Shown one piece after another: positions 30,605-63,703 of a stretch of DNA of 64,000 nucleotides. Source of the DNA: Pedosphaera sp. Its GTDB lineage: Bacteria > Verrucomicrobiota > Verrucomicrobiia > Limisphaerales > SXQI01. The notes below the pieces were generated by a model that saw only the letters and a program-made list of their open reading frames with translations, did not search any database and was not told the DNA's origin. A program made the translations under genes and the position numbers. The DNA is taken from NCBI GenBank assembly GCA_025359965.1, contig JANYDC010000119.1:41945-105944 (forward strand), written 5' to 3'. The first letter of the stretch is position 1. Each line of letters starts with the position of its first letter.

Positions 30605-32815
30605 TTGCCGAGCATGCGCCGATCACCTTTATTGAGGAGCTGTTTATGTCGTCGTCCCCACATCCCGCTGTGGCTGCATGCCTGTCTGCTTCTGGCGCTC
30701 TCATTCGTTTACCAGGGAAACTTGCTGGCACAAAATGCCGGTACAAACACGATTTCCCGCCCCATGATGGATCTAGGCCCGGCGGTTTCATTTATTTTCA
30801 ATAACGCCGCCACAAACAGTCCACTTTCCGGACCCAGCACCAATCTTGTGACCAAATCACTGAGCATTCGTGTAGGGACGAATGCTGGTGTTTGTTTTGA
30901 TACAACGACTCATTGCTACGCGGCAGGCTGGATCGGCGGTTTTATCGATGTCCGCAAAACCTCGATTGCCACCACTGCACAAGGGAGCAGCCCTATTTTT
31001 CCGATTGGCACCAAGGTTTTTGCATCTGTCACACCTGTGATTGAGGGCCAAAAACTTAAATACAAGGGCCACTTTGTGAGTGGCGAGCAGGTGGTTCTTT
31101 CGTACGCCATCAATGATGTCGTTTTTCTGGATCTTCCCGGCATCGAAGAAGTGAGAGGGCAATCGTTTTTGACCCGAACCCTGCGGGTGGATTTAATGAA
31201 AGCGCCGATTGCACTGGTGATGCCTGACACCAAAGGTATTACACTTCTTGATCCCTCCGGCAGCGCCAGGCTGGAAACGAATGGCGCACTCATCACGCTC
31301 AGGATAGCCAGACACGACGAGCCGATTCTTCTGAAAGTGGCTTTTGGCAGCAGTGAACTTCCGCTAATCCCCCCGGTTAATCCTGCAACACTTACGAATG
31401 GAGGACCGGCAAGATGGACGAGTGAGGTCACGACCCATGGCAAACTCGGTGCCGAGCCCGGAGCCTATGTGGTGGATACTCTAACCCTCCCCGAACCCAA
31501 TCCGTGGAACTCATGGATGAGAATTTCCGGGTTGGATTTTTTCAGGGATGGCCGTTGCGCGATTTCCACCCTGAGTGGTGACGTATGGATTGTTTCCGGG
31601 ATTGATTCGAGTCTGAAAAAATTGCATTGGAAGCGTTATGCGAGCGGGCTTTACGAACCACTGGGACTCCGAATTCTCCATGATAAAATCTTTGTGCTCG
31701 GACGCGATCGCATTACTCGACTGCACGATTTAAACCAGGACGGGGAGGCAGATTACTACGAATCATTCAATAGCGATTGGGACGTTTATCCCACTTATCA
31801 TGCGTTCGTTTTTGATCTTCAGGGCGACAGGGCTGGGAATTTTTATTTTGCAAGCGATGGCAATATGGTTGATCCATTTCTCAACAAACATGGCAGCCTG
31901 CTGAAAGTTTCGGCAGATGGATCAACCCTTAAAGTCTTTGCCCGAGGTTTCAGAACTCCCAACGGCCTTAGTGTGGGGCCCAATGACGAGATTACCTGCT
32001 CCGACAATCAGGGGCATTGGACTCCGGCGAGCAAGATCAGTTGGATTCAGCAAGGCGAATTTTATGGATACGGGGGTGATCCACGGCAGCCGCGATTTGC
32101 GGAATATCAAAAAGCCAACTCAATAACGAATTTTGAACCGCCCATTTGCTGGTTGCCTATGAATCTGGATAACTCCAGCGGAGGACAAATCTGGGTCACC
32201 AGCGACAAATGGGGACTGCCTCGCGGGTCACTGCTCCACACTTCATATGGCAAATGCACCCTACTCCATGTGATGTTCGAGGACATCGATGGGCAGAAGC
32301 AGGGCGGAGCCTGGGCATTTCCGGTGCGATTTAATTCAGGGATGATGCGGGGCAGGTTCAATCCAGAAGATGGACAGCTTTACTTGGGAGGACTGAAAGG
32401 CTGGCAAACGGTGGCCATTCAAGATGGAGGTTTACAACGAGTCCGTTATACGGGCAAAACATTATCCCAACCTGTTTCGCTCCATGTCGAAACCGAGGGG
32501 ATCAAAATTAGTTTTGGCACTCGATTAAATCCTTCCTTCGCCAATGACCCAGCAAACTACAGCATCGCCCGATGGAATTATCGGTGGACCTCTCAATACG
32601 GCTCCGACTCGTGGTCCGTCGCAGATCCTCAGCAGAAAGGCGAAGATTCTGTCGTGGTCAAATCGGCAAGGCTTTCGGCAGACGGACTGTCAGTGTTTTT
32701 GGAAACCGAGCCATTAAAGCCGGTTATGCAAATGCGAATCAAATTCGCCATCGAAACAGCTGACGGACAGACGCTTCGGCAGGAAATTTATAACACAATC
32801 AACCGCGTCAAATAA
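30605..32815 (+). CDS. Secreted DUF6797-like/beta-propeller dehydrogenase-like PVC protein
   Basis: MDLGP..KSLSIRVG..FDT N-domain; [49 protein letters not shown]; start uncertain; family name from memory. Confidence 0.75.
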   Translation: MPSMRRSPLLRSCLCRRPHIPLWLHACLLLALSFVYQGNLLAQNAGTNTISRPMMDLGPAVSFIFNNAATNSPLSGPSTNLVTKSLSIRVGTNAGVCFDTTTHCYAAGWIGGFIDVRKTSIATTAQGSSPIFPIGTKVFASVTPVIEGQKLKYKGHFVSGEQVVLSYAINDVVFLDLPGIEEVRGQSFLTRTLRVDLMKAPIALVMPDTKGITLLDPSGSARLETNGALITLRIARHDEPILLKVAFGSSELPLIPPVNPATLTNGGPARWTSEVTTHGKLGAEPGAYVVDTLTLPEPNPWNSWMRISGLDFFRDGRCAISTLSGDVWIVSGIDSSLKKLHWKRYASGLYEPLGLRILHDKIFVLGRDRITRLHDLNQDGEADYYESFNSDWDVYPTYHAFVFDLQGDRAGNFYFASDGNMVDPFLNKHGSLLKVSADGSTLKVFARGFRTPNGLSVGPNDEITCSDNQGHWTPASKISWIQQGEFYGYGGDPRQPRFAEYQKANSITNFEPPICWLPMNLDNSSGGQIWVTSDKWGLPRGSLLHTSYGKCTLLHVMFEDIDGQKQGGAWAFPVRFNSGMMRGRFNPEDGQLYLGGLKGWQTVAIQDGGLQRVRYTGKTLSQPVSLHVETEGIKISFGTRLNPSFANDPANYSIARWNYRWTSQYGSDSWSVADPQQKGEDSVVVKSARLSADGLSVFLETEPLKPVMQMRIKFAIETADGQTLRQEIYNTINRVK

Positions 32816-52167: not shown

Positions 52168-55092
52168 ATGCCCAATTGTCTGAGACTCATCCTAGGCTTG
52201 TTAATTCTCACAAGCGCGGCGCTCAGCATGCGTGCCGAGAATGCTGGCCCTGTGGTGCACATGCTGGTACCGGGCTTCACCGTAGAAGAACTTCCCATCG
52301 AGCTAAGCAATCAGAATAATCTGCGTTTCGACCCGGATGGCAAACTCACCTCACTTGGCTACGATGGGCGCGTGTGGCGATTGCGCGATACTAATGGTGA
52401 TGGTTTGGAAGACACCGCAGAACCAATATGGGATCAATCAACCATTAGCGTTCCTCTGGGAATGATTTGGAGTACAGCAGGATTATTAGTCTCGTCGCAT
52501 GGAAAAGTTTCACTCCTCCGGGACACCAACGGGGACGGGAAGGCTGACAAAGAAGATGTAATCGCAAGTGGCTGGCCGGCCTCGGACGTGGCCAGCGGCG
52601 GAGTCGATGCCACCGCAGTGACCCTCGACAAGGAAGGCAACGTCTACTTCGGCCTCGTTGTCGCGGATTATTCCAATGCATACCGTCTGCGCAAACGCAA
52701 GGAACTCCGCCCCGATGAGGTTAAATGGCTGGCCGATCACCATAAATCGGCCCAAGGCGATCCCGAGGAGTTTGTTTCTCTTTACGATATCACCTCAAAG
52801 CGCGGCACAATCCAAAAATTCGATCCTCGCACGAAACTGCTAACCACCCTCGCCACCGGCATTCGCGTGCCCTGCGGTCTGGCATTCAACGGTGCCGGGG
52901 ACCTCTTTAATACCGATCAAGAAGGCGAAACATGGATGCCCAACGGCAACCCCGTTGATGAACTAAATCATATTATCCCGGGACGAAATTACGGTTTCCC
53001 TCCCGCCAGCGACAAATGGCTCCCCGGTTTGGTCAGTACCGCCCCAGTGGTTGGGTTCGGCCCTCAGCACCAAAGCACCTGTGGTTTTGTTTTTAACGAA
53101 CCGTCCGCGCGAGCAAGCACCAAATCAAAAAGTGATGTCCCACTGCCTGTCTCTTCCGGCCAATCCTTGTTCGGACCTAAAGAATGGACAGGAGATGCCA
53201 TTGTGGCTGGCGAATCGCGCGGTAAAATTTGGAGAGCGAAGCTTACAAAGACACCCGGGGGTTACGTGGGTAAAGAACAGATCATCGCCCGCATCGGCAT
53301 GTTGGTGACCGATGTGACCATCTCTCCAAAGGGCAGCCTCTACGTGAGTTGCCATAGCGGCCCGCCCGATTGGGGCACCGGCCCCAAGGGGCCGGGAAAA
53401 ATCTTTAAAATCACTTACACCAATAGGCAGGCCCCTCAGCCAATTGCCGTCTATCCCACCGGGCCGACCGAGGTGCGCGTTACCTTCAACCAACCGCTTG
53501 ACTCTATCGTCACCAGCACGGTCACCTTGGGAAAAATGCGGATAGAATTCGGGGAATACGCACGGGCTGCGGACCGTTTTGAAAAATTGAAGCCCCCCTA
53601 TGCGGTAGTGCCCCAACAGGACGCCACACCACGCGGCCACCTTTCGGTGCTGAGTGCAAGAATTACTGACAAAGGTCGAACTCTCGTCCTAACCACCACC
53701 CCCCACCCTCTGCCGGTTACTTACGCCCTGACCATCCCAGGCATCAAACGCATTGGCTACAAAGGATCGACTGAAACAGTCGATGTGGACTACGACCTAA
53801 CCCAAGCCAGTCAGCCAAACTCCAAATTATCCACACCAAGCCAGTGGCACCAGCTCGTCTCGTGGGCTCCAGCCCAGCGTGCCTCGTCCGGGACTGACAG
53901 CCGCATGCCAGCCTTCGCAGCAGGTGATTGGGAAGAGGGACGCGGACTTTTCTTCGGCCAAAAACTCCTCTGCTCCACTTGTCACCGCATTCGCGGCGAG
54001 GGTGCCACGGTTGGACCGGACCTCAGCAATCTCGTCCATCGCGATTACGCCAGCGTGTTGCGCGATGTGCGCGATCCCAACGCAACCCTGCATCCTGATT
54101 ACGTTGCATATCGAGCGGATTTGAAAGATGGGGAATCGCTGACCGGCTTCGTCCGTGCCGAGGCTGCTGATACGGTCCGCTTAATTGATGTGGCCGGCCA
54201 TGAGACCATCATCCCGAGGGGCAGCATCCTGAATCTACACCCCACCGGCGAAAGCCTCATGCCGAAAGGCTTGTTGGACACCCTTTCCGAAGGAGAAATC
54301 CGCAACCTAATGACCTTCCTCCTTCGAGAGCCGGTGATCCGCTCACGCGCCGAAATTAATTCCATTCCGAGAATTTTCAAAGCCCCGCCGTCAAACACTC
54401 TCACGCCAATGCGCGTCGTGCTCATCGCCTCCAAACAGGATCACGGCCCGGGTCAGCACGATTACCCGGCCTGGCAAACCAAATGGAGCCGATTGCTGGC
54501 GACTCTGCCTCAGGTAGCCGTCTCAACAGCGTGGGAATGGCCCAGCACAGAACAATTTGCCACCAACGAAGTCTTGGTCTTTTACTATTGGAACCACGAT
54601 TGGTCGGCTGCACGTCTGGCCCAGATTGACCAGTTCCAGCAAAGGGGCGGCGGCATTGTACTCATTCACTCAGCCGTTATTTCAGACAAGGATCCAGAAA
54701 AACTGGCCGAACGCTTCGGCATGGCTGCGCAGCCTGACCGGGTGAAATACCGGCATACGTCCTTCGATCTTCACCTCACACCCAACCATCCCTTAACAGC
54801 TTCGCTGCCTGCCAATCTTGCCTTCCTCGACGAACCGTATTGGCCTCTAATCGGCGACCCAAAACAAGTCACCGTGCTTGCCAGTGCCGAAATGGATGGG
54901 ACCGAACGCCCGCTTGTCTGGACTTTTGAGCACGGCAAAGGTCGTGTTTTTGCCAGTATCCCCGGCCACTATTCATGGACGCTAGACGACCCATTTTGGA
55001 GAATGCTCTGCGTGCGTGGCATGGCATGGGCCGGAAACCGGGATATTTCAACCCTTCACGAAATGACCGTACTGGAACATTTGGTGAAATAG
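52168..55092 (+). CDS. PVC-type heme-c (CxxCH) beta-propeller dehydrogenase-like protein fused to a ThuA-like domain
   Basis: PGFTVEEL, DTNGDG repeats, TDQEG; CSTCH..GPDLS cytochrome c domain; C-terminal DHGPGQHDY..GRVFASIPGH. Confidence 0.85.
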   Translation: MPNCLRLILGLLILTSAALSMRAENAGPVVHMLVPGFTVEELPIELSNQNNLRFDPDGKLTSLGYDGRVWRLRDTNGDGLEDTAEPIWDQSTISVPLGMIWSTAGLLVSSHGKVSLLRDTNGDGKADKEDVIASGWPASDVASGGVDATAVTLDKEGNVYFGLVVADYSNAYRLRKRKELRPDEVKWLADHHKSAQGDPEEFVSLYDITSKRGTIQKFDPRTKLLTTLATGIRVPCGLAFNGAGDLFNTDQEGETWMPNGNPVDELNHIIPGRNYGFPPASDKWLPGLVSTAPVVGFGPQHQSTCGFVFNEPSARASTKSKSDVPLPVSSGQSLFGPKEWTGDAIVAGESRGKIWRAKLTKTPGGYVGKEQIIARIGMLVTDVTISPKGSLYVSCHSGPPDWGTGPKGPGKIFKITYTNRQAPQPIAVYPTGPTEVRVTFNQPLDSIVTSTVTLGKMRIEFGEYARAADRFEKLKPPYAVVPQQDATPRGHLSVLSARITDKGRTLVLTTTPHPLPVTYALTIPGIKRIGYKGSTETVDVDYDLTQASQPNSKLSTPSQWHQLVSWAPAQRASSGTDSRMPAFAAGDWEEGRGLFFGQKLLCSTCHRIRGEGATVGPDLSNLVHRDYASVLRDVRDPNATLHPDYVAYRADLKDGESLTGFVRAEAADTVRLIDVAGHETIIPRGSILNLHPTGESLMPKGLLDTLSEGEIRNLMTFLLREPVIRSRAEINSIPRIFKAPPSNTLTPMRVVLIASKQDHGPGQHDYPAWQTKWSRLLATLPQVAVSTAWEWPSTEQFATNEVLVFYYWNHDWSAARLAQIDQFQQRGGGIVLIHSAVISDKDPEKLAERFGMAAQPDRVKYRHTSFDLHLTPNHPLTASLPANLAFLDEPYWPLIGDPKQVTVLASAEMDGTERPLVWTFEHGKGRVFASIPGHYSWTLDDPFWRMLCVRGMAWAGNRDISTLHEMTVLEHLVK

Positions 55093-55158
55093 ATCAAACG
55101 TTCACGGAGTGATTTTCATTTTTGCTTTCGCAGACGCAGAGCGTTAGCCTGCGGGCAA

Positions 55159-55875
55159 ATGTCGCGGTCCTTATCAATTGTCGTGCCTGTTTTTAACGAG
55201 TCGGGGAATATCGAACCCTTGGCCCGCGAAATGGAGGAGGCATTCTCACCCACCAGTTGGGACTGGGAGCTTGTGTATGTCGATGACGCAAGCACTGACG
55301 ACACCTGGCAAAGGATTTTGGCCCTTAAACAGACCCATCCGCGCGTCCGCGCACTTAGGCACCGTCGCAACGCGGGTCAAAGCGCCGCCCTCTGGACCGG
55401 CATCCAATCCAGCGACAGCGAATACATTACCACTCTGGACGGGGATTTGCAGAACGATCCGGCCGATCTCCCCATGCTTCTGGAAGCCTTGAACGAAGTG
55501 GACTTCGCCTGCGGGGTGCGCGCCAAGCGCAAGGATAGTTGGATACGTCGCACATCCTCCAAGGTAGCGCGTGCGGCAAGGCGTTCCGCGCTGGGTGTGG
55601 ATTTTGCAGATACTGGTTGCGCCGCAAGGGCATTCCGACGCAAAACTTTGCGAGGTATTTTTGCATTCAATGGTTTACACCGTTTCCTGCCGGTGCTGGT
55701 GCATGGTGGCGGGTTTTCCACACGCGAATTACCTATCAACCATCGCCCTCGCGTCTCGGGCGTTTCCAAATACGGAGTATGGAATCGGTTGGGCCGGGGC
55801 ATATTCGATCTTATCGCGGTGGCGTGGTATCAGCGCCGACGCCTTGATCGCGTGGAAGCTGATGAGGCGCCCTAA
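55159..55875 (+). CDS. GT2 polyprenyl-phosphate glycosyltransferase (ArnC/RgtE/DPM1-like)
   Basis: SIVVPVFNE, VDDASTD, NAGQSAA, LDGDLQNDP, DTGC, HRFLP, HRPRVSGVSKYG. Confidence 0.9.
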   Translation: MSRSLSIVVPVFNESGNIEPLAREMEEAFSPTSWDWELVYVDDASTDDTWQRILALKQTHPRVRALRHRRNAGQSAALWTGIQSSDSEYITTLDGDLQNDPADLPMLLEALNEVDFACGVRAKRKDSWIRRTSSKVARAARRSALGVDFADTGCAARAFRRKTLRGIFAFNGLHRFLPVLVHGGGFSTRELPINHRPRVSGVSKYGVWNRLGRGIFDLIAVAWYQRRRLDRVEADEAP

Positions 55876-55887
55876 ACAAGCCAACTG

Positions 55888-58080
55888 ATGTTGCAAAACC
55901 TTGATGCCGCTCTATTTCGTTGGATCAACCACTCCTGGTCGAACTCCGTTCTGGATGTCATTCTTCCGTTCTTCAACGGTAATAAACTTTTCATTCCGCT
56001 GCTTCTCACGGTATTCACAGGCCTTATTTGGTTTCAGCGGCGACGCGGAGCAGTCTACCTGCTCACACTTGTTCTTGGCATCGCCCTTGTCGATGGAGTC
56101 CTTTGCAATACGCTTAAAAAGTCCATCGACCGCCCTCGACCCTTCCTAACGCAGCCGGACGTACACCTCCTAGCTGGGAAAGGCGGCAGCGGCAGCATGC
56201 CATCGGCCCATTCCGCCAATTGCTGGGCTGCGGCGGCGATTACTTTCTTTTTCTACCGGCGCAGTTGGAAATTCATGGTCCCGCTGGCTTCCACCGTCGG
56301 TCTCGCGCGCGTTTATAGCGGTGTTCACTATCCCTCAGACGTGTTGGTCGGGGCATTGGTCGGTTTGGCCGGAGGTGCGGCAACATTCTTCCTCATCAGC
56401 TCAGCCTGGAGACCATTGATTCAAAGATTGCTACCCACAGTGGCCAGCCGTTACCCTACCTTTTCGGCCTTAATTCAGCGCAATCCGCCTGAACTCCCTC
56501 AAAATCCACTCACCAATGCTGAGTGGTACCGCGTAGGGCTCCTGCTTGTTTTTGTTTTTCTTGCCATTCGTCTTGTTTACATTGGCTCTAACCGCATCCT
56601 TCTTGTGGAGGATGAGGCTTACCAATGGATGTGGGGAAAGCACCCAGCCCTTTCCTACTTCAGCAAGCCACCTCTTATAGCTTATTTACACTGGGCAGGT
56701 CGCACGCTTTGGGGTGATCGCGAGTTTGGCATACGCTTTTTTGCTCCAGTATTGGCGGCTGGATTATCATGGATGATGTTGGCCTTTTTCGCACGCACCG
56801 CCAGTGCCCGACTTGGGGCCGCTTTGGTTCTTACCACAGCCGCCGTTCCCCTCATGGCGGTGGGAGCAACCTTGATGTCCATTGATGCGCTGTCTGTTTT
56901 CTTTTGGACAGCAGCCATGGTGACGGGCTGGTTCGCCATAGAACGCGACGCCTTCCGCTGGTGGGCTGCGACAGGATTGATGCTGGGGCTCGGATTTTTG
57001 AGCAAATACACCGCGTTATTCCAATGGATTAGTTTCGCAATCGTGTTTGCTTTTTGGCCGGACCGCCGCAGATGCCTTCGTTCCTACGGCCCCTGGATGG
57101 CTGCGGGCATTGGGCTTTTTGGGCTTATCCCAGTCTGGCTCTGGAACGCCAAAAACGGTTGGATTACTCTGATTCACCTCAACAGCCGAGCTGGCCTTGA
57201 TCATCATTGGGAGCCGACTCTTCGTTTCTTTGGTGAACTGGTGGGCGCAGAAATTGGTTTGCTCAACCCAGTCTTTGCGGTTGGGCTGGTGCTGACTTTC
57301 CTGATCTGGCGGAAGGATCGACTGGGAATTACCCGGCTGGAACAATATCTTTTCTGGATGGGAGCACCGGTGTTCGTTGGTTATATTCTCTTTTCTCTTC
57401 GAGCGCGCGTGCAGCCCAACTGGATTGCCCCATCCCTTGTGCCTCTGTTTGCATGGATGCTTTTAGTGTGGTCACGACAATCGAACCTTAAAATTGCCCT
57501 GCGCTGGTGGGCCGGTGCCATCGTAGGAGGGTTGATTGCCTCAATAGTCATTCACGACACTCAGCTCGTAAAAAAAATCACCGGCATCGCGTTACCCACC
57601 AAAATTGATGCCCTCAACCGTGCACGAGGCTGGCCTCAACTTGCCCAACATGTTGAGACCGAAATTAAGAAGGTGCGCGAGGAGGGAAAAAATGTTTTTG
57701 TGCTGGGAGATCATTATGGCACGACGAGCCTGCTCAATTTTTACATCACTGAAGCGCGCGAAGGCGTACCTGATGAGAGGCTAGTGTTCTTTCCTTGGAC
57801 TGATCACGCGGAAAACCAGTACTTTTTTTGGGCCACGTACACCAACCGCATCGGCAACGATGCAATCTTAGTGAGACAGGCAAAGAAATTGAAAGAGGCT
57901 GATCCTGAGGCAGTCCTGCAAAAAGCTGATTTTGAGGTCTCCCGCCAATTTGAAAGTGTGGAAAGCCTTGGCTTGAGAAGCCTGAGCCATGACGGCCTTG
58001 TCATTCGCCAATTCGAGCTTTACCGCTGCAAAAATCTGCTGCCCATGAACCGGTGGGCAAAAGCTGAGTCAACTCTCTAG
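55888..58080 (+). CDS. Fusion protein: PAP2 phosphatase + ArnT/PMT-like (GT-C) glycosyltransferase
   Basis: N-terminal KKSIDRPRP / PSAH / ARVYSGVHYPSD PAP2 motifs; C-terminal EDEAYQW..YFSKPPL..GIR..LSKYT GT-C signature in one uninterrupted 730-aa frame. Confidence 0.9.
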   Translation: MLQNLDAALFRWINHSWSNSVLDVILPFFNGNKLFIPLLLTVFTGLIWFQRRRGAVYLLTLVLGIALVDGVLCNTLKKSIDRPRPFLTQPDVHLLAGKGGSGSMPSAHSANCWAAAAITFFFYRRSWKFMVPLASTVGLARVYSGVHYPSDVLVGALVGLAGGAATFFLISSAWRPLIQRLLPTVASRYPTFSALIQRNPPELPQNPLTNAEWYRVGLLLVFVFLAIRLVYIGSNRILLVEDEAYQWMWGKHPALSYFSKPPLIAYLHWAGRTLWGDREFGIRFFAPVLAAGLSWMMLAFFARTASARLGAALVLTTAAVPLMAVGATLMSIDALSVFFWTAAMVTGWFAIERDAFRWWAATGLMLGLGFLSKYTALFQWISFAIVFAFWPDRRRCLRSYGPWMAAGIGLFGLIPVWLWNAKNGWITLIHLNSRAGLDHHWEPTLRFFGELVGAEIGLLNPVFAVGLVLTFLIWRKDRLGITRLEQYLFWMGAPVFVGYILFSLRARVQPNWIAPSLVPLFAWMLLVWSRQSNLKIALRWWAGAIVGGLIASIVIHDTQLVKKITGIALPTKIDALNRARGWPQLAQHVETEIKKVREEGKNVFVLGDHYGTTSLLNFYITEAREGVPDERLVFFPWTDHAENQYFFWATYTNRIGNDAILVRQAKKLKEADPEAVLQKADFEVSRQFESVESLGLRSLSHDGLVIRQFELYRCKNLLPMNRWAKAESTL

Positions 58081-58374
58081 GCTTTTCTTGCGCTTGATGT
58101 CCAAGTAAAGATTATAGGAGGCCACAAAGGCTGGAAAGAGATTCGAAAGCACGCCAACCGAGTCGTTCTTGCCAAAGGTGAAGTACGCGAGAAGAAGCAG
58201 GCTGCCCAGGATGCTCATGTACCAAAACATGCGCGGCAAAGTTGGGTGGCCCTTCATCTTGGAGGCAATCATCTGAACAAACCAACGCCCGCTGAAAAGC
58301 GCCACACCTGTGTAGCCCACCAATTTCCACGGCGTGACGCCGATTTTCCCCACGCTAAAAAGTACTTCGTTCAT
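58069..58374 (-). CDS. Lipid A biosynthesis N-terminal (LAB_N, RgtF-like) small membrane protein
   Basis: Start MNEVLF at 58374 (ATGA overlap with the PAP2 stop); WKLVGYTGVALFSGRWFVQMIAS..P..FWYMSILGS..LAYF. Confidence 0.85.
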   Translation of the reverse strand: MNEVLFSVGKIGVTPWKLVGYTGVALFSGRWFVQMIASKMKGHPTLPRMFWYMSILGSLLLLAYFTFGKNDSVGVLSNLFPAFVASYNLYLDIKRKKSLES

Positions 58375-59048
58375 TTGGAATAATAAAAAGGCGGCCACAA
58401 CTTCAGGCAACGCACAGCCAGCCAAGCTCCTACAGTCCCAACCAAAATCGCCGCCATCACATCAGAAAATCGATGGCGGTCCAGATAGATCCGTGAGAAT
58501 CCCACGGCCAATGGCAGAATCAACAAAGCATAGCCCCAACCGGGACGACGCCGAAAAAGAAGGACAGCCGCAAAACCGGCCGCACCACCCGTGTGCCCGG
58601 AGGGGAAGGCATTGTAGTCATAGCTCCCCACGAGCCACTTACCCTCGTGCCGAAGGCCGTACCAACCCTGCTCAACTAAAGCAGAGGGACGTGTGCGCCC
58701 GGTTGTGCAGCGGATGGTCAGGGTCATGACACCACCAATCAGGCACCCCAAAGCAATGGCAATTACCCATCGAGATGATCGAATATCCCGCCGCCACTGG
58801 AAAAAGAGAAAAGGTGGCACCAAACACAGAAGCAAGAAATGTAATTCTGAATACTTGCTCACCGCAGAAAACGCTTTCATGCCGAGGGGGGTCTGCCACT
58901 GCTGGACTTGATGCCTTACCGCCTCATCAAAGAAAAAACTGAGCAAAACCGAGGCGATCAATCCGAACGCCATAGGCCATACGCGATTAGGCGCCGGGGA
59001 ATATGCTTGCCCCGGCAGCGGGGTGGCTGCTTTGCTCAATCCAGTCAT
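58371..59048 (-). CDS. PAP2-family phosphatase (LpxE/LpxF-like)
   Basis: RCTTGRTRP, FPSGH, SRIYLDRHRFSD; several TM helices; start about 59048. Confidence 0.88.
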   Translation of the reverse strand: MTGLSKAATPLPGQAYSPAPNRVWPMAFGLIASVLLSFFFDEAVRHQVQQWQTPLGMKAFSAVSKYSELHFLLLCLVPPFLFFQWRRDIRSSRWVIAIALGCLIGGVMTLTIRCTTGRTRPSALVEQGWYGLRHEGKWLVGSYDYNAFPSGHTGGAAGFAAVLLFRRRPGWGYALLILPLAVGFSRIYLDRHRFSDVMAAILVGTVGAWLAVRCLKLWPPFYYSK

Positions 59049-59167
59049 TAACTCAATAAATTCATACCAAGTGAGGCGAAGAAACAATCTTTCAGCAACT
59101 CAATTGTGTTTCGCATTCTAACCTTGGAGTGCGCGAACACCATCCTGCCTTCCACCTCTGACCAACC

Positions 59168-60631
59168 GTGACACAAACGCCCATACGCAACCGCAACTTG
59201 CTCATCCTTGCTTTCGCCCTGCTTATGCATCTGGCTGGCGGTTGGTGGCTTCCTTTGCTCGATCGCGATGAACCCCGCTTTGCCGAAGCCTCGCGAGAAA
59301 TGCGAGAGCGCAACGACTGGGTCGTCCCGTACTTCAATAACCAATACCGATTCGACAAACCCCCGCTTGTATACTGGCTTCAGATTGCCGCCGCGAAGAC
59401 CATCGGCGAATCCGATGTCAGCGTTAGGTTGCCCTCAGTATTTGCCGCTGCTGCCACAGCCCTGGCCATCTACGGTTTCGGCCGCCGATGGCGCGATGAG
59501 CCGACCGGCTTTCGCGCTGCTCTCATCTTTACCTGCTGCCTCCAAACACTTATTCACGCCAAACTGGCCCTCGCGGACATGCTCATGATTGCATTTTCTA
59601 CCCTTGCACTCTGGGGTGGCTGGGAGCTCCTGCGGAATCCAGAGCCCCGTTTCTGGAGAAATCGCTGGTGGTGGGTTTTCTACATGGCCCTGGGACTGGC
59701 TTTTCTTGCCAAAGGTCCTGTCGGCTGGCTCCCACTCATACTGGTTGCTTGGAGCGCTCGTGATCTTCGCAGGAACGGACGACCGAGCCCTTGTGGTTGG
59801 CTCCCCGGAATTTTAATCATGTTTGGCGTTGTCGCCTTGTGGGGGATTCCAGCTCTTGTTCGCACCGAAGGGGAATACCTCAGGATTGGCATCGGCAAAC
59901 ATGTGGTCGCGCGTTCCATCCAGACCATGGACGGTCACGGTGCGCAAGGTCTGATGACTTATCTGGTGTCCCTGCCCTTTTACCTGCTCACATTTTTCAT
60001 GAGCTTCTTCCCGTGGTGCCTTAAAACGGCGCCTCTCTGGCGCACATGGCGCGCGCCAACTTCCACAGCTTTCAAAACCTGGGACGTGTTCTATCTCTCG
60101 CGAGGAATTCTCATCGTCTTGGTGATCTTTACTTTGGTGAAAACCAAACTGCCTCACTACACCCTGCCTGCCTTCCCGGCCCTCTGCCTGCTTGTCGCGT
60201 CCCTTTGGAGCGCCGCCGGACTAACCGAACGCTTTTTCCGCCGAGCCGTCGTTGCCATGGTACTTCTCAACGTGGCTATTTCTCTCATCGCCGCTCCTAT
60301 TCTCCGCCCCTACTTTCCAACCTTACAAATTCTGCACTTGGTAGAGTCCCACTTAACCCGCGAAACTGAACTGGCAACCAGTCACTACGAAGAACCCAGC
60401 CTTGTCTGGTACTTGCGCGCGCGCACACACAAGTTTCTCCAGACATTGGAGTCCGACCAAGTCCTAAGCTTCATCCGCCAACCCGGCTCCAAAATAGGAA
60501 TCCTTCCCAGCGAGGATTATACAAAGGCCGAATCCGTGACCAATGCCCCTTGGCAAACCCTCCGGATTCAAGGCTGGAATCCAGTGGTAGGAAAGCACAT
60601 GGATCTAACCGTTCTCATCCGCGAAAAGTGA
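59168..60631 (+). CDS. ArnT-family (GT-C) glycosyltransferase
   Basis: LDRDEPRFAEASREM, YRFDKPPLVYW, RLPS, LAKGPVG, TKLPHYTLPAFPA. Confidence 0.92.
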   Translation: MTQTPIRNRNLLILAFALLMHLAGGWWLPLLDRDEPRFAEASREMRERNDWVVPYFNNQYRFDKPPLVYWLQIAAAKTIGESDVSVRLPSVFAAAATALAIYGFGRRWRDEPTGFRAALIFTCCLQTLIHAKLALADMLMIAFSTLALWGGWELLRNPEPRFWRNRWWWVFYMALGLAFLAKGPVGWLPLILVAWSARDLRRNGRPSPCGWLPGILIMFGVVALWGIPALVRTEGEYLRIGIGKHVVARSIQTMDGHGAQGLMTYLVSLPFYLLTFFMSFFPWCLKTAPLWRTWRAPTSTAFKTWDVFYLSRGILIVLVIFTLVKTKLPHYTLPAFPALCLLVASLWSAAGLTERFFRRAVVAMVLLNVAISLIAAPILRPYFPTLQILHLVESHLTRETELATSHYEEPSLVWYLRARTHKFLQTLESDQVLSFIRQPGSKIGILPSEDYTKAESVTNAPWQTLRIQGWNPVVGKHMDLTVLIREK

Positions 60632-60634
60632 TTT

Positions 60635-61141
60635 CTATAGCAGACGGAAAGCATCGGCTCGGTAAGAACTCACAAAGAGAGTGAGCACCCCCGAGTGGAC
60701 ACGCTGTTTCTGCCCATCCCATCGTACCGAGGTCTGAGTGGCTACCATGCTGGAAAGCGCCTCAATGGCTTTCTCCGCCTTCCCCTCTTGAATGAATCCA
60801 GCGATGGCGTTGAGCAGGGTCACACCGAAAATCACAGAAGAATCCGTCCATTCGCCCAACACCGCTGTGACGGCTCCAGCCAACAGGAGGATGTAAACGA
60901 GCGGTTGGTTGAACTGCTGAAGGAAATGGAGCCAGCAGGAAGGGCCTTGCTTGGCCGGGATACAGTTCCTACCCAATTTCTCCTGACGCCTCTTTGCTTC
61001 AAGAGTGGAGAGTCCGGTCTTTATATCCACCTCGAGCAAGCGCAAGACTTCTTCAATTCTGAACGAATGCCAAGGCAAGCTTCCACCAATCTTCTTCGGG
61101 GCAGTTTCAGACGAGTCAGTAATCGTTGGCGGTTTTAGCAC
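60635..61141 (-). pseudogene. Truncated cation-transporting P-type ATPase (N-terminal fragment)
   Basis: WH..EEV..GLS..EAKRR..GRN, FLQQFNQPLVYILL, NAIAGFIQEGKAEKAIEAL, TSVRWDG; stops before the LVPGD/TGES/DKTGT motifs. Confidence 0.8.
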
Positions 61142-61402
61142 TGGGTCGGACTTACGTTACCGTCACCAAGCACCTGAGACCTCAAGAAAAATCAAACCAA
61201 CCCTGCACGGTAAATAATTGTATCGTTAGACCGCGAATTCGCTCAACCACTTTTGCCACAAAGAGTCTCTTATTTGGCAGCGACACCCGATTCGTCAAAT
61301 CCCGGCACCGGGGTACATATTATTGATAGACCGAACCATTTACCCAGTGGGAAACCGTCCCTAATCAAATCGACAGCGTTGCGCAAGGAAGTCTCCAAAA
61401 AA

Positions 61403-63703
61403 TTATTTAAGGGCAGCAGGGATTTGGTTGATGGTGTGATAAATTTCGACCGGGAAATTACCGCCGCCCTCTGCCAGTTTGAGATTGAATTGGGTCATCA
61501 CCTGCATTGCCCGTTGGATGCGGGGAACGTGAAGGAACAGCGTGCGACCGTCCGGCGAAAGGTCAACGGACGTCAGTTCAACCTGCTCCCCTTTCAACTC
61601 CCCTTTCTTGCCCACAATTTTGGCAGGCTCGCGGACGGAATAAAGGTCGGAGCCGTATTTTTCCGACCATTTGTAATTCCATTGTTGGAGGTTGTAATTC
61701 TGCAGATCGAGAGCTGATGATCTCTCGACCGGAGCCGTGAGAGTAATTTCCAATCCGCCTGGCCTTACATGCATGCTTTGCACCGTTGCCAAAACCTTGC
61801 CGGTGTAACGGACGCGATGCAAAGCCCCATCCCTTGCGGCCGTAGTCTGCCATCCTTTGAGTCCCGCCACGTAGAGTTGTCCATCGCGGGGGTTAAATCT
61901 TCCTCGCATGGCGCTTGTTTCAAAAGCCAGCGGAAATTTCACGACCCCCCCCTGCACCTGCCCGTCCACCTCGTCTTTCAAGACGTGGAACAATGCGCAT
62001 TTTCCGTAGGACATATGGAGCAACTCACCCTCAAAAGGCCCCCAGCGTTTGCTAGTCACCCACACCTGCCCTCCTGCGGAATTGTCCACGGCAAAAGGCA
62101 GCCAGCACAGTGGCTTATCGTAATCCGTGGGAACTGGTGTCCGATGGGCCGTGCCCATGCAACCGTAGAATCCCCCTTGCTTAATCCAGTTCAAACGGCA
62201 AACAGGCGTCCATATCCCCTCATTGTCGCTGCACGTCACCTGTCCGTCCGGACCGACTCCGGCCCCGTTCGGCGCACGCAAGCCAGTCGCATAAGTCGTC
62301 AACGTCTGACCATCGGGGGAAACTTGAAGCACGCAGCCATTGTGCGCTGAGATCGGGTCAAAGTAGTCCGTGCCCAACAGAGGTGCGCCTTTGGTGAAGT
62401 AAAAATTGCCCTGTGGATCGGTCTGGAGATCCATGACAAACTCGTGGAAGTTCGGCGTTGCGGTCACTTCGTTGTTGAACGCCTCGTAATAATCCGCCTC
62501 GCCATCCCCATTAAGGTCATGCAAACGGGTGATCTGATCGCGGCCAAGCACGTATATTTGGTCCCGGACGACTTTCAATCCCAGCGGTTGGAACAAGCCG
62601 GTGGCCACGCGCTGCCAGCTAAGGTTTTGCAAGGTTTCATCAATTCCAGAAACCACCCACACATCGCCGCTCCATGTCCCGACCGCCGCCCTGGTGCCAT
62701 CGGCAAAGAAGTCGAATCCGCCAAAACGCATCCATGAATTCCATGGATTGAAATCGGGTGCGTTCAACAAGTCGACTTCGTAGGAGCCGCCTTTGGCACC
62801 CAGAGTGCCGTGAGTCTTGATTCGCTCGGAAAACCTCTGAACAAAATTGCTGGTACACATCGAAGGCCATTCAACCGGCAATCTTGTTTTGGCTTGGTCC
62901 GCAGGAACAAGGCCTGGTTGCTCAAGAAGGCGTGCGGGTTTCAAAGTGGTCAGATCGGATGGCAAATGCGGCCCGACTAGAACGGTGAGAGTTGTAGCTT
63001 GAGAAACGGGCGGCAACTGCAAAGTAACCAGACCCGCTTTCTTCGCCACTAAGGCATCAGTTGGGCCGCCCTGGGTTTTAACTTCAACTGCGTCATCGGC
63101 AGCACAGATAAGCAATTCGACACGATGAGTGCTGGGGCCATAGGTCAGGCTGCGCAGAAAAATGGGACCGCCTGCGTGGTCAGTAAAACCAGGCATATCA
63201 AGCACCGGGCAATCACCCACCGTGTAGGACAACGCCACCCGTTCGCCACGGACATACAACCCTCGATACTTGGCCCAGGACTTGGGAAGCGGGCCGTAGG
63301 GTTCGGGTCGTGGATCTGCCCATTGGGTCGCGGAAGCCGCACCCGGTCCGACTAATGAATGAAAAACAAGTTTGCCCTTCACAGCCGGGCGAGAGCCTTC
63401 GGGTGGACGGTGGGTGCCATCAAAAGGTGTCCCCATCAATTTCAGCCATCCGCCAGTCCATCCGCCAGAGTAACGGCACAAATCGGTGTCAAAACACACC
63501 GACGCATTGGTGCCCAGCTTGATAGTGATTCCTTTGAGTGTGATGCCCTCCGGTTTTTCTCCTCCGACCGACCATGGCATGGTAACGGACGAACTCAGGA
63601 ACGGTCCGTAATCCATCTTGTCCCAACGAGGTTGACCCAATAAAACAGGGCACAGGAAAAGACTGATAAACAATGCACGGATCATTGAGCCATCTGTTAA
63701 CAA
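61403..63703 (-). CDS. Secreted DUF6797-like/beta-propeller dehydrogenase-like PVC protein (paralogue of 30605-32815)
   Basis: [68 protein letters not shown]. Confidence 0.78.

Follow-up and report, generated by a model that had tools for sequence, protein, structure and literature searches.

The window analysed here, a stretch of 64,000 nucleotides from an assembly of Pedosphaera sp. (GCA_025359965.1, contig JANYDC010000119.1, positions 41,945 to 105,944; the genome is denoted G000), carries at positions 55159-60631 five genes that encode a GT2-type glycosyltransferase, a PAP2 phosphatase fused to a GT-C transferase domain (GT-C1), a small LAB_N membrane protein, a stand-alone PAP2 phosphatase and a second GT-C transferase (GT-C2). 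This cluster is real and functionally coherent. We propose, with roughly even confidence, that the five genes act together as a single relay for a polyprenyl-phosphate sugar, which feeds two consumer branches in the periplasm and whose most likely acceptor is lipid A. In such a relay the GT2, devoid of a membrane anchor, would use a nucleotide sugar to load polyprenyl phosphate with a monosaccharide at the cytoplasmic face, and LAB_N, a SemiSWEET-like three-helix protein, would be its dedicated membrane partner, either as a tether or as the mover of the loaded carrier to the periplasmic face. The two GT-Cs, which belong to different clades, would draw on this shared donor, each with its own PAP2 (one fused, the other in a divergent gene pair), with the PAP2 dephosphorylating the acceptor lipid and the GT-C installing a sugar where the phosphate had been. 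If the acceptor is lipid A, the targets would be positions 1 and 4' and the product a phosphate-poor, glycosylated lipid A. We infer the acceptor, the sugar, the order of dephosphorylation and glycosylation, the match of each pair to a position and the role of LAB_N.

Lipid A is a candidate acceptor because it has exactly two such phosphates, matching the two phosphatase-transferase pairs, because LpxB and LpxK are present in the genome, and because a published rhizobial system uses the same three enzyme families with clustered genes (PMC5644692, in the passages on these genes). In rhizobial lipid A galacturonosylation, RgtE is the GT2 donor synthase, LpxE and RgtF serve position 1, and LpxF and RgtD serve position 4'. 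In Mesorhizobium loti, rgtE, rgtF and lpxE are clustered (PMC5644692). The earlier note had taken RgtF for a small LAB_N protein, which is wrong, as the same passages give it as an ArnT-like alpha-(1,1)-galacturonic acid transferase of the GT-C type (PMC5644692). The two systems are alike in having a polyprenyl-phosphate-sugar GT2, PAP2 phosphatases and ArnT-like GT-Cs, a likeness at the level of enzyme families, and in the logic of two positions with a phosphatase and a transferase for each. The window cluster differs in that one pair is fused into a single polypeptide, in that its GT2 is without the membrane hairpin, and in that it includes LAB_N, whereas no LAB_N protein is named among the Rgt genes in the passages concerned (PMC5644692).

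The cluster is also similar to the Arn pathway of Enterobacteria. Its GT2 is 31% identical to ArnC and its GT-C2 26% identical to ArnT, with which it shares a DE...(F/Y)(E/D)KPP loop, and both systems contain a small membrane protein, ArnE/ArnF being annotated as a flippase. However, ArnE/ArnF are of the SMR family, a Pfam family different from LAB_N, ArnC has a C-terminal membrane part that is absent from the window GT2, ArnT adds its sugar to a phosphate and has no partner phosphatase, and the window GT2 and GT-C2 score far below the curated ArnC and ArnT cut-offs. The absence of arnA, arnB and arnD, as the earlier note had it, holds for the window, where 48 of the 49 non-overlapping open reading frames (ORFs) of at least 100 aa were covered by the Pfam scan, the rest of the genome not having been searched for these genes. 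By analogy, the cluster would work like the RgtE / LpxE-RgtF / LpxF-RgtD scheme using enzyme families of the Arn pathway, and it fails the curated ArnT, ArnC and LpxE tests. The same 48 ORFs gave no Pfam match to an aminotransferase, formyltransferase, deacetylase or nucleotide-sugar enzyme, and the pathway is not self-contained, as had been claimed, because a nucleotide-sugar gene is absent from the window. Genes of the UDP-sugar 6-dehydrogenase family are present elsewhere in the genome, and a uronic acid donor is therefore possible. One such gene shares a contig with lpxK and lies ~5.5 kb upstream of it (G000:C42:10168-10704 and C42:16278-17336).

The Pfam scan bore out the parts list that had been read from the sequence (GT2, PAP2-GT-C, LAB_N, PAP2 and GT-C), and the scan together with a reading of the DNA indicates that all five genes are intact (Table 1). 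In the fusion, the phosphatase occupies approximately residues 1-180 at the N-terminus and the PMT_2-type GT-C approximately residues 215-730. The GT2 and fusion genes lie on the same strand with a gap of 12 nucleotides, the 3' ends of the fusion and LAB_N genes overlap tail to tail by 12 nucleotides, and the stand-alone PAP2 and GT-C2 genes are divergently oriented across 119 bp. The LAB_N start is most likely the ATG at 58374 instead of the TTG at 58425. This ATG overlaps the stop codon of the upstream PAP2 gene as ATGA, by which LAB_N is probably translationally coupled to PAP2, and for the PAP2 gene itself the most likely start is the ATG at 59048, its orthologues in the genus opening with the same MS.LSK residues. 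Across the 5.14-Mb assembly, PMT_2 has three matches (two of them strong), PAP2 four (two strong) and LAB_N two. Since both strong PMT_2 matches, both strong PAP2 matches and one of the LAB_N matches fall within 5.5 kb, the clustering of the five genes is not due to chance.

Table 1. Positions in the window of the five clustered genes and of the region between the divergent pair, with the basis of each assignment.
Feature	Position	Strand	Basis
GT2, ArnC/GtrB/DPM1-like polyprenyl-phosphate glycosyltransferase, 238 aa	55159..55875	+	Pfam Glycos_transf_2, 97 bits
PAP2-GT-C1 fusion, 730 aa	55888..58080	+	Pfam PAP2 residues 59-170 (77 bits); PMT_2 259-419 (88 bits)
LAB_N (PF07578) three-helix membrane protein, 101 aa	58069..58374	-	Pfam LAB_N
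Stand-alone PAP2 lipid phosphatase, 225 aa	58371..59048	-	Pfam PAP2 65 bits, PAP2_3 36 bits
Divergent intergenic region, 119 bp, between PAP2/LAB_N and GT-C2	59049..59167	.	Read from sequence
GT-C2, ArnT-side GT-C transferase, 487 aa, GTG start	59168..60631	+	Pfam PMT_2 and PMT; PMT_2 59 bits

The same components recur together in other genomes of the phylum. LAB_N of the window type is present in 31 of the 401 phylum genomes sampled, and 29 other loci were viewed with 1.5-kb flanks, ten loci being viewed more widely. In 19 of these 29 loci LAB_N is directly preceded on its own strand by an orthologous GT2, a GT-C2-type gene is found within 1.5 kb in 12 (three of these being weak matches), and a PAP2-type match in six. 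The GT2-LAB_N arrangement is also seen in G011, G022 and G028 of the same order. Operons of the order GT2 - LAB_N - PAP2 - GT-C2 are present in G201 and G294, and G102 has GT-C1 - GT2 - LAB_N - GT-C2 - PAP2. In the class-level relatives G066 and G258, GT-C1, GT2, LAB_N, GT-C2 and two PAP2 genes occur in one place, which is the content of the window in unfused form. GT-C2 adjoins PAP2 in G001, G002, G025, G201, G294, G066 and G258. For GT-C1, adjacent separate PAP2 and GT-C1 genes stand in place of the fusion in G023 and G024, a PAP2 gene follows GT-C1 in G276, and G022 has GT-C1 - PAP2 - GT2 - LAB_N on one strand. Conservation of the cluster across Verrucomicrobiota, which the earlier note had proposed to examine, thus stands for the parts list (G066 and G258, and the GT2-LAB_N pair in 19 of 29 loci) and not for the five-gene layout, which is confined to the genus.

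The pathway had also been held to be specific to the PVC bacteria, which did not stand up, as the GT2-LAB_N-GT-C trio is found outside the phylum as well. A search of a plasmid collection with LAB_N gave only two records, from Aeromonas caviae and Pelagovum pacificum, both of which carry the trio. The Aeromonas caviae LAB_N is 61% identical to that of the window, and the Pelagovum pacificum plasmid has the three genes annotated as GT2, 'lipid-A-disaccharide synthase N-terminal domain-containing protein' and hypothetical protein. The Aeromonas caviae record (L147; NZ_AP026896.1) is 4.9 Mb long, is labelled a plasmid and has 18 annotated features in total.

GT-C2 is on the ArnT side of the GT-C transferases. 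It shares 26% identity with E. coli ArnT across 321 aa (E-value 2e-14), and its sole solved relative is ArnT (PDB identifier 5ezm, E-value 7e-13). In ten relatives, D32, R33, D34, E35, P36, R37 and F38 as well as R61, F62, D63, K64 and P65 are invariant, and these residues align with the DE...FEKPP stretch of ArnT. GT-C1 of the fusion is only marginally similar to E. coli ArnT (27% identity over 171 aa, E-value 9e-7), and its first-loop residues D242, E243, K260 and P261 are invariant across 24 homologues. Both GT-Cs retain the acidic DE motif, aligned with the DE of ArnT, and the (F/S)(D/K)KPP stretch of the first external loop. The two domains are as distant from each other (24% identity, E-value 8e-7) as from ArnT. 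In a quick maximum likelihood tree of 28 GT-C sequences, one branch, with an SH-aLRT support of 100%, splits the GT-C1 group, which holds the fused domains and unfused operon members, from a group that takes in the GT-C2 clade and E. coli ArnT. SH-aLRT was the only support computed for this midpoint-rooted tree, in which long branches were flagged and the careful search was unfinished. The two separated GT-C clades and the recurrence of a PAP2 with each therefore indicate two transferase lineages, each with its own phosphatase, that share one GT2-LAB_N pair, and the earlier idea of a single donor synthase feeding two phosphatase-transferase pairs is backed by these clades, by a PAP2 adjoining or fused to each and by the recurrent GT2-LAB_N pair.

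The PAP2 superfamily is characterized by the motifs KX6RP, PSGH and SRX5HX3D. The fusion PAP2 has all three, with K77, R84, P85, P105, S106, H108, R141, H147 and D151 invariant in 24 sequences. In the stand-alone PAP2, which likewise retains the three motifs, the lysine of the first motif is replaced by an arginine (R113), and G117, R118, R120, P121, P149, S150, G151, H152, R186, H192 and D196 are invariant in ten relatives. The best solved relative of the fusion PAP2 is the LpxE of Aquifex aeolicus (PDB identifier 6ebu, E-value 4.5e-11), followed by B. subtilis YodM/PgpB (E-value 1.9e-8), matches that share all three motifs, are at the level of the superfamily and are not informative on the substrate. 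The stand-alone PAP2 matches LpxE with an E-value of 0.017. Its orthologues, 53-56% identical, adjoin GT-C2 in two genomes of the same genus, and a 43% identical relative adjoins GT-C2 fragments in another family of the order. The PAP2s beside GT-C1 in the unfused operons could not be linked to either window PAP2 by phmmer, being too divergent. An assignment of the two PAP2s to position 1 or 4' was considered and dropped as undecidable from curated-model scores.

The proposed donor synthase (P0001) shares 31% identity with E. coli ArnC across 219 aa, in an alignment that stops at residue 225 of the 322 of ArnC, and its match to the solved ArnC structures is confined to their residues 9-226. 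No hydrophobic 19-residue window at a Kyte-Doolittle value of at least 1.5 is present in this GT2, and all 13 relatives in the alignment have their last residues in the same ...AWYQRRR... helix. Because the ArnC alignment stops there, no hydrophobic segment is found and the relatives share the end point, we take this protein to be a polyprenyl-phosphate-type GT2 without a membrane hairpin of its own: of the ArnC/GtrB/DPM1 layout, in which interface helices and a C-terminal membrane hairpin follow the catalytic domain, it has that domain and the stretch as far as ArnC residue 225, and the hairpin is absent. Its best NCBIfam match is ArnC, and judged by this score (116 bits, below the cut-off of 529) it is probably not an ArnC equivalog. 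Orthologues that are 60-75% identical are widespread in the order.

The LAB_N assignment is well above the Pfam gathering cut-off of 26.7, with 69.4 bits over residues 36-107 of the long ORF and 70 bits in the genome search. The predicted model, with a mean pLDDT of 89, has helices at residues 15-41, 48-69 and 72-100. Among the matches listed, homologues are 64-73% identical once near-identical and same-genus ones are set aside, and some distant ones are labelled Steroidobacter or Methylomirabilota. In an alignment of 31 sequences, a signature ...GKNDSVG... is nearly invariant. LAB_N is similar to the SemiSWEET sugar transporters in its length of ~100 aa and its three membrane helices, and differs from them in having this signature. 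The best Foldseek match is a SemiSWEET (PDB identifier 4x5n, E-value 0.94, TM score 0.46), and SemiSWEETs (4qnc, E-value 0.18, and 4x5m, E-value 0.44) are two of the three matches of the LAB_N profile against the PDB, all of these being below significance. Prediction of a complex of GT2 and LAB_N scored 0.00 against a mark of 0.32, which counts neither for nor against binding. Most of the sampled genomes of the order have relatives ~32-42% identical to the window LAB_N, and a second LAB_N paralogue of the genome (G000:C125:2352-2732; L003; 87 bits) has a C-terminal zinc-ribbon tail and lies among unrelated genes. Bordetella lgmD was considered as a possible LAB_N analogue and rejected, the passage concerned saying merely that lgmD is not essential (PMC4993483). 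A bolder proposal, which we regard as doubtful, is that LAB_N is the dedicated flippase or obligate membrane subunit for polyprenyl-phosphate monosaccharides in a widespread GT2-LAB_N-GT-C pathway that in Verrucomicrobiota feeds two PAP2-coupled transferases, one of them a single bifunctional enzyme that takes off the phosphate and adds the sugar, with relatives in several hundred species-level genomes. These bacteria would then constitutively make a phosphate-free, doubly glycosylated lipid A.

A number of observations weigh against the proposed lipid A relay, many of which concern gene distribution. The five-gene layout is specific to the genus, having turned up only in G000 and, interrupted by contig breaks, in G001, and related genomes are not independent samples. 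In G002, GT2, LAB_N, PAP2 and GT-C2 are kept and the fusion is reduced to fragments, and in G003 (76% complete) GT2 and LAB_N were the only ones of the five found, with neither PAP2 nor GT-C2. The G002 remnants are two overlapping, out-of-frame fragments of the PAP2 part of the fusion that come after GT2 (L085:1199-1638); in G003, LAB_N directly follows a lactonase/phosphoesterase gene, with no PAP2 or GT-C2 between them (L092). Close relatives appear to have lost one or both consumer branches while retaining GT2 and LAB_N, and a single genus has assembled the fused enzyme, the second branch and the donor genes in one place. Across the phylum sample, GT2 is absent within 1.5 kb of LAB_N in ten of the 29 loci, and several loci have the GT2-LAB_N-GT-C2 trio without a PAP2 within that distance. 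The co-occurrence of the fusion and GT2 in 31 genomes, G000 included, is loose (GT2 is present in 14 of 16 genomes with the fusion and in 11 of 15 without it). No conserved partner was found beside the GT2 orthologues of 12 other genomes, four of which are of little information since GT2 itself was lost there to the ORF filter.

The PAP2-GT-C fusion is a core Limisphaerales gene that is elsewhere located among housekeeping genes. In the protein database, 653 homologues were found at an E-value of at most 0.001 among 7,998 candidates scored, the best 120 of the 653 all having both domains, and in the genome collection 553 relatives were confirmed among 593 pattern matches. Of 80 loci of other species, many of which are short contigs, 79 have none of the other four genes nearby, the remaining one, with LAB_N adjoining, being that of the closest relative (53% identity), and no stand-alone PAP2 or GT-C2 was found beside the fusion in any of the 80. 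The conserved row of genes around it comprises a sigma-70 factor at -2 (31 loci), a phosphoribosyltransferase at -1 (37), an OGG glycosylase at +1 (45) and a ComB-type phosphatase at +2 (29). As these neighbours are housekeeping genes, they are uninformative about the function of the fusion.

A layout restricted to one genus, together with a fusion and a GT2 that are scattered in other genomes, might suggest that the adjacency is a chance rearrangement in that genus and that the five genes have no joint function. We consider this highly improbable, given that other families of the phylum have independent clusters of these components, in other orders and unfused, that the spacing is operon-like (the 12-nucleotide gap and the ATGA overlap), and that a stretch of 5.5 kb holds the strong PAP2 matches and the strong PMT_2 matches of the assembly, two of each.

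The scores of the individual proteins speak against the lipid A relay as well. GT-C2 reaches 106 bits with the ArnT model NF009784, below the cut-off of 567, and the fusion has no match to this model at an E-value of at most 0.01. With the LpxE model NF007159 the fusion and the stand-alone PAP2 score 20.9 and 21.4 bits, respectively, both below the cut-off of 177, whereas with the undecaprenyl-diphosphatase models NF008813 and NF047884 (cut-offs 229 and 250) the fusion scores 53.8 and 48.6 bits and the stand-alone PAP2 32.0 and 21.2 bits. By these scores, LpxE is no better a fit for the two PAP2s than carrier-lipid phosphatases are. The LAB_N likeness to SemiSWEETs, while concordant in both methods, is weak and non-significant, and a wide structural search with the LAB_N model returned generic helical bundles, complex I/Mrp subunits and designed proteins at Z-scores of 7-9, which is background for helical models.

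The same relay could operate with an acceptor other than lipid A, such as a phosphoglycolipid, a polysaccharide or, by PMT-type O-glycosylation, a protein, with the PAP2s trimming the acceptor or a phosphorylated lipid-linked donor. This would agree with the Pfam placement of both GT-Cs in PMT_2/PMT and in no ArnT-specific model, with the marginal ArnT likeness of GT-C1 and its clade of its own, and with the housekeeping surroundings of the fusion in most of the order. On the other hand, lipid A has two phosphates, as many as there are phosphatase-transferase pairs, the solved or curated relatives found for GT-C2 are all ArnT, and the best solved relative of the fusion PAP2 is a lipid A 1-phosphatase. 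Moreover, we know of no acceptor besides lipid A that needs dephosphorylation before glycosylation by a GT2-fed GT-C. An acceptor of another kind is possible, in our estimate, and rather less probable than lipid A.

Alternatively, the GT-Cs could add sugar onto retained lipid A phosphates, as ArnT does, the PAP2s being undecaprenyl-diphosphate phosphatases or LpxT-like phosphotransferases that supply polyprenyl phosphate or else compete with or regulate the transferases. The fusion PAP2 scores best on the undecaprenyl-diphosphatase models, and the loci in which the GT2-LAB_N-GT-C2 trio is without a nearby PAP2 are consistent with such a role. So is G243, in which a donor synthase carries a fused PAP2, an arrangement that may suit a carrier-lipid role as well and is a further point against the lipid A relay. 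In this locus (L144:8451-10058, minus strand) a 535-aa frame of PAP2 (residues 126-253) and GT2 (residues 302-453) is followed by LAB_N and preceded by GT-C1. There is also a precedent in Pseudomonas aeruginosa, where the PAP2-family protein LpxT is physically associated with the ArnT-type GT-C, binding ArnT and modulating its output (PMC13142001). PAP2 and GT-C are associated in both cases, covalently in the fusion, and LpxT is a phosphotransferase that adds phosphate and antagonizes ArnT. However, by the established ArnT-type chemistry, GT-C transfer from a polyprenyl monophosphate sugar frees polyprenyl phosphate, and a diphosphatase is therefore unnecessary. BacA is present in the genome, and the PAP2s therefore need not serve as the housekeeping undecaprenyl-diphosphatase or in bulk carrier recycling. 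Also, carrier recycling does not readily account for two different PAP2s that each go with a GT-C clade of their own. We judge sugar addition to retained phosphates to be distinctly unlikely.

The surroundings of the cluster in the window are as follows. Just upstream of GT2 is the gene of a 974-aa protein with DUF7133, GSDH, cytochrome c and ThuA domains (52168-55092, plus strand). Directly after GT-C2, a 168-aa ORF (60635-61141, minus strand; Cation_ATPase_N, 69 bits) matches only the N-terminal part of P-type cation ATPases, covering approximately the first 110-130 positions of models 755-997 long, and looks like the remnant of a truncated P-type ATPase. Two large DUF6797 proteins are encoded in the window (61403-63703, minus strand, and 30605-32815, plus strand). 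A consensus scan found no promoter-like sites in the 119-bp divergent region, counts over 54900-61300 being at or below the shuffled expectation, and a hairpin just past the LAB_N stop codon (58060-58039, minus strand) was rejected as a terminator, as in the promoter and terminator scan of that interval it was not above chance. In other genomes, an OmpR-type regulator adjoins the GT-C/GT2/LAB_N module in G028 (L090:8300-10098, with a histidine kinase) and in G243 (L144:11732-12526), which suggests regulated expression in these two. This is a weak hint in favour of the relay, as are an LpxA-like gene two genes from the module in G066 and an NAD-dependent sugar epimerase gene that adjoins the operon in G201 and G300.

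The literature was searched by titles, abstracts and some passages, and within this scope we found no report on the function of LAB_N (PF07578, IPR011499), the name leading only to unrelated papers and one on the tryptophan content of Chlamydia, none on lipid A modification in Verrucomicrobia among the papers listed and nothing relevant that links SemiSWEETs with an undecaprenyl flippase; judged by title and abstract, none of the papers found is on a fused PAP2-GT-C (PAP2-ArnT) lipid A enzyme. As far as these searches reach, no role for LAB_N has been published, nor has an enzyme that joins PAP2 and GT-C covalently or a set of genes for lipid A modification in this phylum.

Swapping the phosphates of lipid A for sugars alters the charge and stability of the outer membrane and its recognition by innate immunity, and the genetics of this replacement have been worked out mainly in Rhizobiales. 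If the relay acts on lipid A as proposed here, the cluster would offer candidate genes for this replacement in an environmental phylum that is abundant and poorly cultured, and the fusion would be a natural single-chain phosphatase-transferase, attractive for structural study of how the two steps are coupled. It would also give LAB_N a testable role, and a GT2 without an anchor combined with a three-helix protein would represent a new solution for making and flipping lipid-linked monosaccharide donors.

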